In this document: piece after piece, positions 18,033 through 23,055 of the stretch | Position numbering within the stretch: position 1 is the first letter of the stretch | Layout: each line of letters opens with the position of its first letter | Assembly: GCA_017631635.1 (NCBI GenBank) | Contig: JAGBSX010000022.1 | Coordinates: 18,659 to 82,658 of the forward strand | Source of the DNA: Clostridia bacterium | GTDB lineage: Bacteria > Bacillota > Clostridia > Christensenellales > RUG350 | DNA: 64,000 nt | Reading direction: 5' to 3' | The notes under the pieces: model-generated | Databases searched by the model: none | What the model saw: only the letters and a program-made list of their open reading frames with translations | What the model was told of the DNA's origin: nothing | Program-made: the position numbers and the translations under genes

Positions 18033-18725
18033 TTACTCTGCTTGCGTATCGGTAGTGGTAGTCTCACTCTCCGTGCTAGATGCGTCTGCTACGGTAGAGT
18101 CCTCGACGTCGTCGGTAGGAGCAGACACTACTGTCGCGCCTACGTTTTCATTATCAGCATTAGAAAATACCTTGAATACAGTCAAAAATAGTATCTTGAT
18201 ATCTAGCCATAGGGATAGATTGTCTACGTACCACACGTTGAGTTTGATACGCTTGTTCCACTCTACGTCTTTGCGACCATTTATCTGTGCCCAACCGGTG
18301 ATACCTGGACGCACGTCAAACATACGCAGTTGCTCCTCTGTATATTGGTCGATAGGCCAAGGGTGATAGGTGAGAGGTGGACGTGGTCCTATGAAACTCA
18401 TATCTCCCTTTAGCACGGAGAAAAACTGAGGTATCTCATCTAGAGAGGTGCGACGCAAAAACTTGCCCACCTTGGTCACACGAGTATCTCCCTTGCCAGA
18501 GTATACGCCACTACCAGTCTGCTCAGCGCCTACGCACATGGAGCGAAACTTCCATATCTTAAATACCTTGCCACCTTTGCCTATACGCTCTTGTTTGAAG
18601 ATAACAGGACCTTTGGAGTCTAGTTTGATAGCGATAGCAATGATTAGCATAGGTATAGCAGATATGATGATGCCTAGTAGTGAAAATATTATGTCAAATA
18701 ACCTTTTGAAAAAATGTCTATACAT
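18033..18725 (-). CDS. Initiating undecaprenyl-phosphate sugar phosphotransferase (small bacterial sugar transferase type)
   Basis: 230 aa, one N-terminal TM helix. Motifs KFRSM, DEIPQF, GDMSFIGPRPP. First gene of the locus. Carries an unusual acidic Ser/Thr-rich C-terminal tail. Confidence 0.9.
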   Translation of the reverse strand: MYRHFFKRLFDIIFSLLGIIISAIPMLIIAIAIKLDSKGPVIFKQERIGKGGKVFKIWKFRSMCVGAEQTGSGVYSGKGDTRVTKVGKFLRRTSLDEIPQFFSVLKGDMSFIGPRPPLTYHPWPIDQYTEEQLRMFDVRPGITGWAQINGRKDVEWNKRIKLNVWYVDNLSLWLDIKILFLTVFKVFSNADNENVGATVVSAPTDDVEDSTVADASSTESETTTTDTQAE

Positions 18726-18846: not shown

Positions 18847-19046
18847 TAAAAATAGGCGTGTACCAAGAATTTTTCTACGATACCACCTATTTTAACTCTT
18901 TTTACTCAACCACGCGACAAAACGACGGTGTTTTTTCTCTCACGCTTGCAGTTTTGGAGAGTGAGTCTAGTCAATTATAAAGGTACTAAGCGACTGACTA
19001 TCCACAACTTATGCAGGTTTTTTATAATTTTGTACTCGCTATAAAT

Positions 19047-19152
19047 AAAAAAAGCACCACTGTGGTGCTTGCAGCACGGAAGCCCGCATCCTCTTCCCTT
19101 TAAGCGGCCAATTACTTGTAAAGATCTAGAGTCGATACAAGAGTAATGCTAC
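19047..19152 (-). ncRNA. Candidate small RNA 1 (family not recognised)
   Basis: Bounded by the perfect consensus promoter at 19159-19187 and an intrinsic terminator, AGCACCA-CAG-TGGTGCT (19053-19069) plus U7. About 105 nt with an internal 10-bp bulged hairpin. No ORF with a credible SD. Confidence 0.5.
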
Positions 19153-19156
19153 TGTA

Positions 19157-19197
19157 ATATTATATGCAAATATTTATGATTTGTCAACAGGTTTTTT
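19157..19197. repeat. 41-bp direct repeat, copy 1 (carries the sRNA1 promoter)
   Basis: ATATTATATGCAAATATTTATGATTTGTCAA(C/T)AGGTTTTTT is identical to 19407-19447 except for one base. Confidence 0.9.
19159..19187 (-). promoter_or_regulatory. Perfect consensus sigma70 promoter (TTGACA-17-TATAAT) for sRNA1
   Basis: Minus strand reads TTGACAaatcataaatatttgcaTATAAT, with an A-rich UP-like tract upstream. Confidence 0.7.
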
Positions 19198-19299
19198 ATA
19201 AAAAACTAATAAACAAACAAATTTGTTACGTCGTCGAGGCTGTTGACGGCACAAGCAAGAAAATAATGCCTATAATGACTGCATATAAAGCAAAAGTAA

Positions 19300-19402
19300 A
19301 AAAATAAAAAGGAAAGTAAACACTTCCCTTTGAAAATCCCATGCGAGGTAGATATTTATAACCCCTACCACCACGTCCGAAACGAGCGCATGCGGTCTTT
19401 TC
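19300..19402 (-). ncRNA. Candidate small RNA 2 (family not recognised)
   Basis: Bounded by the perfect promoter at 19409-19437 and a terminator, GGGAAGU-GUUU-ACUUUCC (19311-19328) followed by U5AU7. About 100 nt. Contains a GGTAG...CTACC hairpin and CATGCG/CGCATG pairing. Confidence 0.5.
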
Positions 19403-19406
19403 ACAT

Positions 19407-19447
19407 ATATTATATGCAAATATTTATGATTTGTCAATAGGTTTTTT
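19407..19447. repeat. 41-bp direct repeat, copy 2 (carries the sRNA2 promoter)
   Basis: See copy 1. The two copies are 250 bp apart. Confidence 0.9.
19409..19437 (-). promoter_or_regulatory. Perfect consensus sigma70 promoter (TTGACA-17-TATAAT) for sRNA2
   Basis: Sequence identical to the sRNA1 promoter. Confidence 0.7.
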
Positions 19448-19506
19448 TAATTTTAATAAAAAAAGGTACATAACGACCACAAGGCAACGGTATATGTCTT
19501 TCTTGA

Positions 19507-19535
19507 TTGACAAAATATAAAAGGAGGCATATAAT
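19507..19535 (+). promoter_or_regulatory. Perfect consensus promoter TTGACA-17-TATAAT facing the small-ORF cassette
   Basis: TTGACAaaatataaaaggaggcaTATAAT. The spacer contains the AGGAGG SD of ORF 19538, and the ATG lies only 3 nt after the -10, so the promoter and SD/ATG signals overlap. Confidence 0.55.
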
Positions 19536-19537
19536 AT

Positions 19538-19741
19538 ATGAGAGATTGGGATGAAAACAAGCATCCAAGAAACGCACTTGGAGAATTTACAAACAAAAGC
19601 ATTGCAGAATTAAAATCTGAAATCATAGAAATTATTCCCTATAAAAAAGAGCCGATTATACTTGGAGGTGTAATATGGAAGAGAAAGATAAAAACAAAAA
19701 AATACCCTATAGATTTACTTGTCCTATACCGGTGGAAGTAG
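19538..19741 (+). CDS. Hypothetical 67-aa protein with an N-terminal WDENKHPRNALGEF motif
   Basis: AGGAGG lies 10 nt upstream. The 3' 67 nt overlap the next ORF in the -1 frame. The motif resembles the KHPR(D/N)xxGxF motif that I recall from phage and conjugative-element proteins (unverified). Confidence 0.45.
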   Translation: MRDWDENKHPRNALGEFTNKSIAELKSEIIEIIPYKKEPIILGGVIWKRKIKTKKYPIDLLVLYRWK

Positions 19742-19869
19742 TAGGATACGTTGAGATAAGTGAAGAAGATAGAAAAAAGTATAGAGAACAACATATAAAA
19801 TCTCAAAAATATTTTGGTATAGAAACCAATCCTGAAAATATTACAGAAATAGACTACGACAACTTATAA
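19675..19869 (+). CDS. Hypothetical 64-aa protein, paralog 1 (PYRFTCP...EISEEDRKKYREQHIK...NPENITEIDYDNL)
   Basis: SD GGAGGTG 4 nt upstream. 64 aa, about 75% identical to ORF 19953. Confidence 0.6.
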   Translation: MEEKDKNKKIPYRFTCPIPVEVVGYVEISEEDRKKYREQHIKSQKYFGIETNPENITEIDYDNL

Positions 19870-19952
19870 TTGAAAAAAAAGCACCTGATTTATAGTTGTT
19901 GATATGTATAATGATAAAGACAAATATATTGTGTATTTAAAAGAGGTACAAT

Positions 19953-20147
19953 ATGAAAAAAAGTGATAAGAAAAACAAACTACCCTATAGATTTACTTGT
20001 CCTATGCCAGGCAGGTCTGTAGGACATGAAGAGATAAGCGAAGAAGATAGAAAAAAGTATAGAGAACAACATATAAAAACGCTTAAACATTTTGGAATAG
20101 AAATCAATCCTGAAAATATTACAGAAATAGACTACGACAACTTATAA
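19953..20147 (+). CDS. Hypothetical 64-aa protein, paralog 2
   Basis: SD AAGAGG upstream. Tandem duplicate of 19675-19869 (278-bp period). The C-terminal 17 aa are identical; a variable patch follows the CP motif. Confidence 0.65.
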   Translation: MKKSDKKNKLPYRFTCPMPGRSVGHEEISEEDRKKYREQHIKTLKHFGIEINPENITEIDYDNL

Positions 20148-20227
20148 TTAAAAAATATAAAGTTACTGTGCGAATATATGAAAAAAACGAGACTATGAAT
20201 TTGAAATAATAAGAGAGGAAAATGTAA

Positions 20228-20503
20228 ATGACTAATGAAGAATATATTAATTATATCAAAGAACTGATTTCTTCTTCCAATGAGGCTGATTATGTGGCTT
20301 TTGTTGGAGTTAAGTATAACATTAAGGATAAGATAATGTCATTTATCAAAAATAACGATATATCGTGTAAGCACCTGTGGGAAGATAGTGTTGAGGGGGA
20401 TAAATCAACTGAAGATTGGCACAAACTTATACTTTATGTAACTGATTTGTGCAACAAAGTAAACCCAAGTGGAAAAGTAGGATTGTATATAAAAAACAAA
20501 TAG
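20228..20503 (+). CDS. Hypothetical 91-aa protein
   Basis: SD GAGAGGA upstream, then an ATG-TAA-ATG start-stop-start arrangement. No family recognised. Followed by a terminator. Confidence 0.55.
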   Translation: MTNEEYINYIKELISSSNEADYVAFVGVKYNIKDKIMSFIKNNDISCKHLWEDSVEGDKSTEDWHKLILYVTDLCNKVNPSGKVGLYIKNK

Positions 20504-20516
20504 CAAATATCAAAAT

Positions 20517-20550
20517 TAAAAAAGCACTTGCGATAGCAGGTGCTTTTAAT
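20517..20550. terminator. Bidirectional rho-independent terminator (small-ORF cassette / nadR)
   Basis: 10-bp stem AAGCACTTGC/GCAGGTGCTT (one G-U pair), loop GATA, flanked by an A-run and a T-run. Confidence 0.7.
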
Positions 20551-20567
20551 TTGCAAAGAAAGTAACT

Positions 20568-21602
20568 TCAAAACTGTGTTGTGATTCCAAGCTCTGCAAT
20601 CAGTTTTTTAGCTGTTTCAAAGCGTTCCAAGTAGTCTCCGGAGACACAATGGTATGTAATATTGTTTTGCGCGAGTGCTTGTTTGATTTGCTGACTGTAC
20701 CTTTCTCTGTCCTCATGAATTTTCTTATTTCTTGTACCGTCTTGGATAAATTCCACATCCGGCTCAAGAAACAAAACCAAATCCCACTGTGTCATATCGC
20801 TGATTGCAGTAGCCATTTTTTCACATATTTCAATTTCTTTGGGATTTGTCAAAATCAACCGAGAGTAAAATAACGTTGTAACTGCATCGGTATCCACGAA
20901 CAAGACGCGATTGCTTTTTTTGGCAGCATCCATGATCTGCAAGCGTTGACGGAGTAGATTCTCATATAAATCCTCCGCCATCATAAAATCCTCACCGCCG
21001 GCATAATCCGATGTGATTCGCCCGTATTCCGCCACATAGTTAGTATTATAGGCAAGTGCTAAATTTTGAACAAGAGTGCTTTTTCCGGTGCTTTCTCCGC
21101 CTACGACCAAAACCTTTCGTGCATAATAATCCTTACAAACATCCGGTATATAGTCCCAATGCGCGCTCGCCCAAGTACGTATTTCCGTTGAACTGATCGG
21201 AACCTCTTCTCGATCAAAATAGATGACTTGGCTTTCCGGACAGTATAGGGATTCAAATCGATTTGTTCCCAAATAGTCGCTTCCGCAAAATACTACATCA
21301 ATGTGTTTACCAATGGCACTCTTAATGTCCATGGCACCCTTTTCCCAATAATAGTCGGTATTATATTCTTCTTTCGATACAGCTTTGTCTTCGATCAAAA
21401 GAATTTTGACATTTGGTAGATGTCTCGTACTGTTAAGAATCCAACGATATCGAAGCTCTTTAGGTGTTGATTCGCGTCCTTCGCACCAACTGATCACAAT
21501 ATACAGTTCTTCGCATACGGATGCAGCTTTAATGATATCGGATATATGCCCTAAATGAAGGGGATCAAAGGATCCTCCGTACATACCTGTTTTATATAGC
21601 AT
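20568..21602 (-). CDS. nadR: NadR-type bifunctional NMN adenylyltransferase / ribosylnicotinamide kinase (no HTH domain)
   Basis: 344 aa. N-terminal GGSFDPLHLGH nucleotidyltransferase motif, central P-loop GGESTGKST. Overlaps pnuC by 11 nt. Confidence 0.8.
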   Translation of the reverse strand: MLYKTGMYGGSFDPLHLGHISDIIKAASVCEELYIVISWCEGRESTPKELRYRWILNSTRHLPNVKILLIEDKAVSKEEYNTDYYWEKGAMDIKSAIGKHIDVVFCGSDYLGTNRFESLYCPESQVIYFDREEVPISSTEIRTWASAHWDYIPDVCKDYYARKVLVVGGESTGKSTLVQNLALAYNTNYVAEYGRITSDYAGGEDFMMAEDLYENLLRQRLQIMDAAKKSNRVLFVDTDAVTTLFYSRLILTNPKEIEICEKMATAISDMTQWDLVLFLEPDVEFIQDGTRNKKIHEDRERYSQQIKQALAQNNITYHCVSGDYLERFETAKKLIAELGITTQF

Positions 21603-22284
21603 TTTTCTGACGAGCCTCCTTTTCCCATTTGATTAACATGATAATAGCATTACCCAAGTATACTCCCCACATCAGAAGTGTGGCAATATTGTCACTTCCG
21701 TTGCGGAAATCACACCACCACATATATATGCTGAAAACATCCACCGCAATCCAGATCCACCACTGCTCTGCATACATACGAATAGAGATAACCATAGCAA
21801 CCACAGATGAAACTGTAGTAAAGGCATCAACGAATGGCATTACGTCCCCAATGTGTTTAAGAAGCAATCCATACAAATATGTTGCTATAGCTATTGTAAC
21901 AATTAACAATGCAATGCCATACGGACGCATCTTGCGTTTTTCGACCTCACCGGTTTCTGTATTGATATGCTTGCTCCATACGATGAGACCTATAAATTGC
22001 ATAGGAATATAAAAAAACACATTTAGCATTGTTTCTCCATATAGTGCTGCTCGGTAGGAAATAATTGCGTATAACACACAATTCACAAACCCGAACAGAT
22101 AGGCTGATAGTTTTCCTTTTCCGGTGCAGACAACGCATGCAACACCTGTTAGGGAAGAAATAATACCCATTAATGAATCTCCCCAATAGATAGACAGCCC
22201 AGTAATTGTTGCGCAGGTCAGAATCAACCAAAAAACCTCAAAAGGTTTCCAACCGGTTAACTCGTTTTTGATTAATTTTCGCAT
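21592..22284 (-). CDS. pnuC: Nicotinamide riboside transporter PnuC
   Basis: 230 aa, 7-8 TM helices, PnuC-like N-terminal pattern (TGWKPFE...W...CVV...GK...). Operon with nadR. Confidence 0.85.
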   Translation of the reverse strand: MRKLIKNELTGWKPFEVFWLILTCATITGLSIYWGDSLMGIISSLTGVACVVCTGKGKLSAYLFGFVNCVLYAIISYRAALYGETMLNVFFYIPMQFIGLIVWSKHINTETGEVEKRKMRPYGIALLIVTIAIATYLYGLLLKHIGDVMPFVDAFTTVSSVVAMVISIRMYAEQWWIWIAVDVFSIYMWWCDFRNGSDNIATLLMWGVYLGNAIIMLIKWEKEARQKNAI

Positions 22285-22305
22285 AAAAAATCACCCTCTT
22301 TTTAC

Positions 22306-22334
22306 ATTATAGCACAAGAGCTAACTAAAATCAA
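22306..22334 (-). promoter_or_regulatory. Predicted promoter of pnuC-nadR
   Basis: Minus strand reads TTGATT-17 nt-TGcTATAAT (extended -10). The 5' UTR is short, with SD AGAGGGTGA. Confidence 0.65.
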
Positions 22335-22481
22335 GGTATAGCCTTGTATATCACCAACACGGAGTGTTGTATATCATCATTGCGAAAGCGAATCCAGCCC
22401 CAAAGGTGCTGATGATATCCACGCTAAAGCGTGATGATATCCACGACTGCCTCGTGATGATATGCCATCGCTTTCGCAATG
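22332..22481. repeat. Array of dissimilar short hairpins joined by conserved ATATCA(C/T) / ATGATAT(C/G) linkers (array H1)
   Basis: Hairpins at 22332-46, 22355-69, 22395-411, 22420-33 and 22442-56. Linkers: TATATCAC, TATATCAT, ATGATATC x2, ATGATATG. A 14-bp long-range inverted repeat (22378-22391 / 22468-22481) encloses three of the hairpins. Confidence 0.6.
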
Positions 22482-22483
22482 GA

Positions 22484-22522
22484 TAAAAAAAATACTGCAG
22501 AAAATATATCCTTTTCTGCAGT
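22484..22522 (-). terminator. Rho-independent terminator of ssrA
   Basis: 11-bp stem ACTGCAGAAAA/TTTTCTGCAGT (22494-22504/22512-22522), 7-nt loop, U-run on the minus strand. Confidence 0.8.
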
Positions 22523-22528
22523 CTTTTT

Positions 22529-22884
22529 TGGTGGAGGTGAGGAGAGTCGAACTCCCGTTCAATACAATAGCCGATAATCCTTCTACATACTTAGTCGGTA
22601 TATTGTCATCTTACTACTATCGCCTACCGACAGGCTATAATAGTCGTTATCCCGTATTACCCTATATCCCTACGGGAGTCAGGTATAGAGTTGTCTGCAT
22701 AGTTGATGCCGAGTCTAATACTGCAGAAGATACTAGGTCGACATCGCTGACTTAGGCAGCGAAAGCAAATGAATTGCTGTTAGTTTTGTTTGCGTTTAAA
22801 TTTAATTTTTCGTTTTGACAGAGCCGAAACCTCTGGTATGCTTCTATCACCCTCTACTTGTACTGTCGAATCCGGTACACCCCC
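22529..22884 (-). ncRNA. ssrA: tmRNA (transfer-messenger RNA, SsrA)
   Basis: 5' end is GGGGGUGUACCGGAUUCGACAG. 3' end is GGGAGUUCGACUCUCCUCACCUCCACCA (T-arm plus acceptor with encoded CCA). The G3:U pair is an alanine identity element. Internal tag ORF at 22793-22752: GCA AAC AAA ACU AAC AGC AAU UCA UUU GCU UUC GCU GCC UAA. Confidence 0.9.
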
Positions 22885-22908
22885 GTATACCGATATGGGT
22901 GGAGGTAT

Positions 22909-22937
22909 ATATTAGCACAAGACAAAAAAAAATGCAA
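22909..22937 (-). promoter_or_regulatory. Predicted ssrA promoter
   Basis: Minus strand reads TTGCAT-17 nt-TGcTAATAT, about 25 nt upstream of the mature 5' end. A short precursor leader is expected. Confidence 0.5.
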
Positions 22938-23055
22938 GAGTTTTGCTCGGATTTGGAGATATAGGTATTTGTACTTTTTATTTTGTCGATATATAGGCGT
23001 GCAGTCAAAAAAATGAAAAAATGCAAGTAGATAGAAAAATAATATCCGAAAAACT

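Follow-up and report, generated by a model that had tools for sequence, protein, structure and literature searches.

A cassette of four small open reading frames (ORFs), A to D, lies on the + strand at positions 19507-20503 of a 64,000-nucleotide stretch of a Clostridia bacterium genome (GenBank assembly GCA_017631635.1, contig JAGBSX010000022.1); this whole stretch is called the window here. The cassette is probably what remains of phage modules in which an ADP-ribosyltransferase (ART) toxin is paired with a small partner protein. B and C, and with them D, would be orphan immunity-type genes that stayed behind when their toxins were lost. An earlier sequence-only reading had described four tiny unknown ORFs, including a tandem duplication, and had proposed a small conflict, immunity or regulatory module. 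The ORFs are present with the lengths it gave (A, 67 aa; B and C, 64 aa each; D, 91 aa), and sequences like that of Shine and Dalgarno (SD) can be read ahead of all four. The results below do not uphold A as a gene of its own or C as a simple duplicate of B. The immunity-type role is kept, with ARTs as the partners; the regulatory link to neighboring small RNAs (sRNAs) is not. The puzzling tiny ORFs would thus be explained as an orphan immunity array, and phrog_8857, the phage family to which B and C belong, gains a first, testable functional hypothesis, that of an ART antidote.

B and C are members of a phage protein family

ORF B is located at 19675-19869 (+) and ORF C at 19953-20147 (+). 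They form a tandem repeat with a period of 278 bp, as the sequence-only reading had it, and the repeat alignment shows 91% identity over 137 nt and 82% over 66 nt, with a divergent patch between the two blocks. The products share the strings PYRFTCP, EISEEDRKKYREQHIK and NPENITEIDYDNL. The patch directly after the CP motif reads IPVEVVGYVE in B and MPGRSVGHEE in C, with VEV in B against GRS in C; it may set specificity. By direct reading, GGAGGT stands 5 nt ahead of B, and C is preceded by AGAGGT.

Sequence searches of A, B and C against Pfam, NCBIfam, PADLOC and the PDB gave no usable match. The phrog_8857 profile matches both B (E 2.7e-6, profile positions 6-50 of 58) and C (E 1.3e-6, positions 18-54), so the earlier statement that no family could be recognized does not hold for these two proteins. 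This family has been described from phages and has no assigned function; the homology is therefore not to a characterized family. Three proteins of the Clostridioides difficile phage phiCD24-1 match the same profile at E 1e-28 to 1e-34. The C segment SVGHEEISEEDR matches VIGHEEISEEDR of the 71-aa phiCD24-1 protein (...FEVIGHEEISEEDR), and the joint alignment shares the pattern ..P.GE.(V/I)G(H/Y).(E/D)I.EE(D/E)RKKY. Translated searches (tblastn) of phages with C and with a B-like protein gave mostly chance matches. The match to phiCD24-1 was weak in that search (E 5) and took on meaning only once the PHROG scan had been made.

Relatives of B among 5.8 billion sequences fall into 8 clusters with the single sequence as query and into 17 clusters with a profile as query. 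The motif PYRFTCx(I/M)Px..V is invariant across this wider family while its codons vary synonymously, which argues that the family is protein-coding and under constraint. The form PYRFTCxIPxEVVG is retained across lineages, and the ratio of non-synonymous to synonymous polymorphism (pN/pS) of B among strain variants is 0.22-0.54. At the level of sequence, these patterns show purifying selection on the B family. A scan of IMG/VR for the PYRFTC motif gave no match, and scans of 185,579 species-representative genomes and of JGI metagenomes gave only chance matches inside unrelated genes; the family was recovered solely through the protein database. An AlphaFold2 model of B built on the 17-sequence alignment has a predicted local distance difference test (pLDDT) score of 66, with a predicted helix at residues 30-46 and coil elsewhere, a quality too low to support a fold search.

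The partner genes are linked to ARTs

Loci designated by L-numbers are recovered loci or contigs, most of them short metagenomic contigs. All nine lineages recovered for the B family and phrog_8857 have an ART, or a piece of one, directly upstream of the partner gene. In the intact phage module, a perfect promoter has an SD within its spacer, the ART start codon comes 2 nt after the -10 element, and the ART of about 215 aa is followed by a partner of 50-70 aa and then by terS. The ART is made up of an N-terminal leader of the KHPR type and a catalytic domain with R, S and E motifs; in C. difficile phages it is fused to the MuF minor head protein.

Stand-alone ARTs of 214-218 aa are encoded in L024/25 and L026-29 (Pfam ADPrib_exo_Tox, E 2.9e-11). 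The start of the partner gene overlaps the ART stop by 14 nt in these modules, and terS lies downstream of the partner gene wherever the contigs reach far enough. The minor head protein of phiCD24-1 joins a MuF-like domain to an ART (ADPrib_exo_Tox, E 1.1e-8). The first gene after it, a phrog_8857 gene of 58 aa, overlaps the MuF-ART stop by 8 nt with its start. Next come a second copy of the ART C-terminus (79 aa) and two further phrog_8857 genes, of 71 aa and 58 aa in that order. R117, S146-T147 and E181, which correspond to the R / S-T-S / (Q/E)-x-E motifs, are invariant in the ARTs of L024, L026 and phiCD24-1. The linkage of the partner is to the ART and not to terS, because the phiCD24-1 genes come after the ART and not after terS. 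The shared partner gene ties the stand-alone phage ARTs to the MuF-fused ones.

Ten C. difficile prophage loci, with between one and three partner genes each, came up in a reverse search with the ART profile. Among the near-identical IMG/VR prophages L030-L039, the number of phrog_8857 genes after the MuF-ART is one in L031, two in L030 and L036, and three in the rest, and the orphan ART C-terminus is sometimes present and sometimes absent. The comparison also includes L020 4951-5820. Two features of polymorphic-toxin loci, in which the immunity gene is usually coupled to the toxin in translation, are thus found in the relatives of the cassette: a small gene that lies directly 3' of the toxin domain and overlaps its stop, and orphan toxin fragments accompanied by tandem extra partner genes of variable copy number. 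The phiCD24-1 region has the gene order of a polymorphic-toxin locus with orphan modules.

Other loci have lost most of the ART. A C-terminal ART fragment lies upstream of a B-like gene in L003, L013 and L021 (ART profile, E 2e-21 to 6e-12). On the phage contig L003 there are also terS, TerL, portal and MuF-type protein genes. In L005 and L015 only the last few ART codons remain, and these hold the SD of the partner gene. The region at L013 8447-10360 is a prophage stub with an integrase, a frameshifted C-terminal ART half, an intact B-like gene and a 43-aa helix-turn-helix fragment that resembles the start of terS. L013 comes from another Clostridia genome and is a second, independent case of a partner gene outliving its toxin.

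Probable pieces of ART genes in ORF A and the spacers

ORF A is located at 19538-19741 (+), begins with MRDWDENKHPRNALGEF, and has the SD AGGAGG 9 nt ahead of its ATG. Its codons 1 to about 40 correspond to the N-terminal leader of an ART, with the motif WDExKHPRxxxGxF. The N-terminus of the L024 ART (MSKRFIESEHKRDERGRFAEMDTSELKK) and that of A (MRDWDENKHPRNALGEFTNKSIAELKS) align with a pairwise E of 0.003, and A aligns to positions 8-35 of the ART profile with a score reached by 4 of 1000 shuffles. A has no Pfam match and lacks every one of the R / S-T-S / (Q/E)-x-E catalytic motifs, and a tblastn search of phage genomes with A found no match. Its final 22 codons are the start region of B read in another frame and change whenever B changes. 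Among strain variants, the pN/pS of A is 0.5-0.9. Since the N-terminus aligns to an ART, the catalytic motifs are absent and the tail reads through B, A appears to be an ART gene without its catalytic core; it is best read as a toxin-gene remnant and not as an independent gene.

The motif of A (DWDENKHPRNALGEF) also matches a motif that is repeated 3-12 times in giant polyvalent proteins (E down to 4e-10 among 1.84 billion proteins). The sequence-only reading had associated a KHPRxxxGxF-type motif with phage and conjugative-element proteins, and these matches confirm this. Three of five polyvalent proteins scanned bear an ART-PolyVal domain, and one of the five has a sub-threshold Mu F match. 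The motif stands at the extreme N-terminus of both the stand-alone L024 ART (813-900) and the 1695-aa polyvalent protein P0014 (residues 9-57), and copies recur between polyvalent-protein domains. A role as a signal for packaging, targeting or processing is possible. The literature search for a KHPR motif by name was unproductive, and a term search of PMC5512222, which describes polyvalent proteins, did not find it named.

A second ART remnant lies in the spacer between B and C, at 19889-19966 (+), and reads FIVVDMYNDKDKYIVYLKEVQYEK followed by a stop. It contains the SD of C, and its stop overlaps the start of C by 14 nt, as in the intact L024 and L026 modules. This is the best segment of the region against the ART profile, matching positions 188-209, the last 22, with a score equaled by 4 of 1000 shuffles. 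A possible third remnant lies ahead of D at 20182-20235 (+) and reads KKRDYEFEIIREENVND followed by a stop that overlaps the start of D by 8 nt (ATGACTAA). It matches ART profile positions 181-195 weakly (40 of 1000 shuffles equal) and resembles ...RRNSKFEIIELEE of phiCD24-1, where the MuF-ART and the first partner gene have the same 8-nt overlap. These features suggest that B and C are best read as two toxin-less partner genes with homogenized 3' halves, not as a simple duplication. A search of the whole 64-kb window with the ART profile gave no match at E<=0.01. Because there is no intact ART, and A keeps only about 40 N-terminal residues of one, the locus is an orphan array and not a complete system.

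ORF D is located at 20228-20503 (+) and is preceded by the SD-like sequence GAGAGGA. It encodes an orphan small protein in the position of a partner gene and would be a third immunity-type gene, of a family different from that of B and C. D has no Pfam, NCBIfam or PDB match. Its single PADLOC match is weak (E 5.9e-4, 16.8 bits) and is to part of an 'Effector: Endonuclease' model. Relatives among the 5.8 billion sequences form one cluster, 98% identical, from the corresponding locus in related strains. D differs between strains by 2-3 synonymous and 2 non-synonymous changes (pN/pS about 0.15-0.23). An AlphaFold2 single-sequence model of D, with a pLDDT of 45.6, is uninformative.

A predicted promoter overlies the toxin ribosome-binding site

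The perfect sigma-70-type promoter TTGACA-17-TATAAT reported by the sequence-only reading is present at 19507-19535 (+) and matches at 12 of 12 positions. Perfect matches occur three times in the 64 kb, all within 380 bp, where 0.02 are expected by chance. The other two are on the - strand; the one at 19507-19535 faces the cassette. The SD of A (19523-19528) is inside the promoter spacer, and the -10 element ends 2 nt ahead of the ATG of A. The intact ART gene of L026 has a matching layout, with its promoter at 735-763 and its ATG at 766 (TTGACA-aaacattaaaggtggtg-TATAAT-ca-ATG, compared with TTGACA-aaatataaaaggaggca-TATAAT-at-ATG in the window), and 12 of its 17 spacer bases are identical to those of the window. 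Apart from this, the two ART N-termini differ greatly. Among strain variants, including L004 and L006, only one upstream base and one spacer base vary in the promoter and the 60 nt that precede it.

Transcription from sigma-70-type promoters normally starts 5-9 nt after the -10 element, so the RNA should begin after the toxin SD and AUG. The transcript from 19507-19535 would thus start at about 19541-19543 and exclude the SD and ATG of A. A promoter laid over the ribosome-binding site of the toxin is a compact layout that could uncouple antidote from toxin expression. Directly after D, a hairpin at 20524-20543 (+), GCACTTGC-GATA-GCAGGTGC, is followed by TTTTAATTT, the whole spanning 20524-20552 on direct reading of the sequence. 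It is likely the terminator of the B-C-D transcript, shared with a convergent nadR-like gene. The terminator scan did not list this hairpin on the + strand.

The cassette varies between strains

The array has several forms in related strains. In L004 the array consists of A, B and a C' whose C-terminal half differs; the transfer-messenger RNA (tmRNA) gene comes directly after it, and D, nadR and pnuC are absent. In L006-L008 a single B-type gene of 60 aa is present together with D, an unrelated gene of 147 aa takes the place of nadR, and there are none of the sRNA units found beside the cassette in the window. L010 is a single-copy locus with a B/C chimera followed by D. A remains open, with an in-frame 3-nt indel, in three variants. 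The single-copy, chimeric and divergent-C' variants show that the array changes by recombination between copies; polymorphic-toxin loci are dynamic in this way too. The 147-aa protein of L006-L008 is Cys-rich and has no Pfam match; its gene lies directly after D and replaces nadR and pnuC (L007 1193-1636, -; L006 5364-5732).

Proposed function of the cassette

In the proposed scheme, the catalytic part of the ART gene was deleted, A is the leftover leader, the spacer between B and C contains the 3' end of a second ART gene, and a third may have stood before D. B and C would bind and block their cognate ARTs, with the patch after the CP motif setting specificity. In a lysogen that carries the intact module, RNA from the promoter would give partner protein without toxin, and late transcripts reading through the module would give both. 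In the window, the promoter would drive B, C and D constitutively, and the 133-nt leader of their transcript would include the dead A. Orphan antidotes of this kind would shield the cell against ARTs brought in by related phages or prophage-bearing neighbors. If orphan genes do guard against phage-delivered ARTs, gut and rumen Clostridia would have in them a simple means of resisting phages that has so far been little documented.

A broader version of the scheme is speculative and rather doubtful. It holds that bacteria capture the antidotes of ART modules as a constitutive defense against injected or early-made ARTs, the patch tracking ART variants; that phages generally place a -10 element between the toxin SD and AUG so that lysogens make antidote and no toxin; and that the KHPR leader acts, as in polyvalent proteins, as a signal for capsid targeting or processing.

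Several points weigh against an orphan immunity array. The family is tiny and known almost only from short metagenomic contigs, so that the independent contexts are few. Binding and inhibition of ARTs by phrog_8857 proteins are putative, and the model of B is a single predicted helix plus coil at a pLDDT of 66. The toxicity of the phage ARTs to bacteria is likewise putative; they could instead be effectors of anti-defense or host takeover, for which an antidote is not needed. Only about 30 residues of A align to the ART N-terminus, and the match of the segment ahead of D is weak, as its shuffle count indicates. D has no relatives outside the locus, and its role is assigned from position. The transcription start is placed by promoter geometry only. 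A further candidate ART remnant upstream of B, in the +1 frame (KLFPIKKSRLYLEV*), was dropped since it gave no signal against the ART profile; upstream of B, only the SD-stop-ATG junction resembles L003.

The strongest alternative, though an unlikely one, takes the cassette for inert remains, left at a hot spot beside ssrA when a prophage or mobile element decayed. B, C and D would then have no function now and would be in the course of being lost. The truncated A and the ART remnants in the spacers are what such decay would leave, the island is compositionally foreign and varies between strains, D stands without relatives elsewhere, and L013 provides a comparable and clearly decayed prophage stub beside an integrase. 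The coding sequences themselves argue otherwise. The frames of B, C and D are intact in every sampled strain variant, B has a pN/pS of 0.22-0.54, and the changes in D are 3 synonymous and 2 non-synonymous. The 12/12 promoter and the 60 nt upstream of it are nearly invariant across variants. Moreover, only the toxin parts have been lost, and this more than once, which is the pattern expected with selected antidotes and unselected toxins.

It is less likely still that phrog_8857 proteins are accessories of the ART, such as a capsid-loading chaperone or adaptor, a regulator of late genes or packaging, or a decoy substrate. The partner gene is directly upstream of terS in L003 and L026, the protein is small, highly charged and, in the model, mostly disordered but for one helix, and the invariant Arg of the P-Y-R-F motif could be an ART target. 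Some phage ARTs are also host-takeover effectors without known antidotes. The partner genes of phiCD24-1 come after the ART, however, and not after terS, and an accessory would be useless once the ART is deleted, yet orphans persist in at least four chromosomal contexts (the window, L005, L015 and L021). Arrays with orphan toxin C-termini, moreover, typify toxin/immunity loci.

A very improbable reading makes the cassette a module for regulation, or one like a type I toxin-antitoxin pair, formed with the two divergent sRNA units, with A as a functional micro-protein. In its favor, three perfect promoters cluster within 380 bp, both sRNA units are structured (fold z scores of -2.7 and -2.8), and A stays open, with its in-frame indel, in three variants. 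Against it, the cassettes of L006-L008 lack any sRNA unit, and shuffled sequences form duplexes as good as those between sRNA and mRNA. The hydrophilic proteins B, C and D are unlike type I toxins, the tail of A varies freely with the frame of B, and the promoter would leave the SD and AUG of A off the transcript.

Comparison with known toxin and immunity systems

With an orphan immunity array as the preferred reading, the closest described counterparts are the MuF toxins that temperate phages carry. Of 191 MuF toxin genes, 89% have after them a small ORF for which an immunity role was proposed, and 14% of these polymorphic toxins, which have variable C-terminal domains, are ARTs (Jamet et al. 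2017, PMC5576092). The phiCD24-1 region, with a MuF-ART fusion followed by three homologs of B and C, is of this kind. The modules of L024 and L026 differ in that their ART, of about 215 aa, stands alone, is encoded upstream of terS, and has a KHPR-type leader and no MuF domain, and the window differs in that the toxin has been deleted. A term search of PMC5576092 found neither phrog_8857 as an immunity family nor the word 'orphan'.

Bxa is an antibacterial ART of a Bacteroides stercoris prophage, and two proteins neutralize it: Bsi, which is small and binds it, and a hydrolase (Alexei et al. 2024, PMC11699363). An adjacent small non-enzymatic binder is the mechanism proposed here for B and C, and the likeness is one of role. 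The Bacteroides system belongs to another phylum, Bsi is larger than B and C (residues 89-92 were mutated), and its locus includes an ADP-ribosylhydrolase immunity protein, BAH, that has no counterpart in the window. The polyvalent proteins that phages and conjugative elements encode (Iyer et al. 2017, PMC5512222) share the N-terminal motif of A. They are large and have 2-15 effector domains, whereas A has 67 aa, one copy of the motif and no effector domain.

The window also resembles the orphan arrays of contact-dependent growth inhibition (CDI) loci and Rhs loci, and acquired immunity-gene islands, in having an array of partner genes behind toxin fragments. In CDI and Rhs loci, immunity arrays stand behind 5'-truncated toxin fragments, copy number changes, modules recombine, and immunity is kept without the toxin. 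Their toxins travel between bacteria through secretion systems, whereas the source of the ART in the window is a phage. In colicin operons a constitutive immunity promoter lies inside the toxin gene, and immunity is expressed without the toxin. Here the -10 element lies instead between the toxin SD and the start codon; this layout is seen in two lineages only, and promoter activity is predicted. On this reading, the cassette is a toxin-less, promoter-equipped array of antidote-type genes from phage ART modules.

The flanking sRNA units

Two sRNA units lie beside the cassette on the - strand, at 19042-19152 and 19298-19402. Each combines a perfect promoter and an intrinsic terminator with a structured RNA body of about 70 nt. 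The predicted RNAs of about 100 nt have no Rfam match. The units sit between direct repeats of CAGGTTTTTT and are gained or lost as modules, none being present in L006-L008 and at least one in L004. The unit at L004 1-130 has promoter and terminator as in the window and a diverged body. Its outer stem differs from that of the window by apparently compensatory changes (GCAUGCG..CGCAUGG versus GCUUGAG..CUCAAGG).

Regulation of the cassette by these units was considered and rejected. The best duplexes between the sRNAs and the cassette mRNA were matched by 7 of 100 and 63 of 100 shuffles, respectively, and the cassette occurs without the units in L006-L008. The sequence-only reading had proposed a check of co-occurrence with these units, and no link to them was found; another of its proposals, profile searches and gene neighborhoods of B and C homologs, yielded the 17 clusters and the upstream ART genes and fragments described above.

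Setting of the locus

The stretch that contains the cassette has a GC content of 27-33%, compared with 40-48% in its flanks. It is bordered by a sugar-transferase gene (18033-18725, -) on one side and by nadR-like and pnuC genes (20568-22284, -) on the other, and the tmRNA gene (22529-22884, -) follows. The cassette had been placed beside tmRNA in a CTAG-free island. The tmRNA gene is indeed near, at a distance of 2 kb with the nadR-like and pnuC genes in between, and the island is real: the 64-kb window has 576 CTAG sites (about 240 expected from base composition), and none lies in 19127-22732, where about 32 are expected at the average rate of the window. These 3.6 kb include the cassette, the nadR-like and pnuC genes and the 3' part of the tmRNA gene. 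The absence of CTAG marks the cassette as part of a compositionally foreign segment. No att-like repeats of the tmRNA 3' end were found in a search for them, and an Rfam scan of the island gave no match.

The NadR-like protein (CTP_transf_like and AAA_28 domains) and PnuC, a nicotinamide mononucleotide transporter, belong to NAD+ salvage, and their genes adjoin the remnants of NAD+-consuming ART genes. They are not at the corresponding position in the strain variants L004 and L006. The polyvalent protein P0014, which bears the motif of A, joins an ART with a cytidylyltransferase-like domain. A functional link between the NAD+ salvage genes and the ART remnants is possible. The Rfam match to 'tmRNA_permuted' (51 bits; 22752-22943, -) overlaps the standard tmRNA match (152 bits) and is most likely a redundant match to the tmRNA gene itself.

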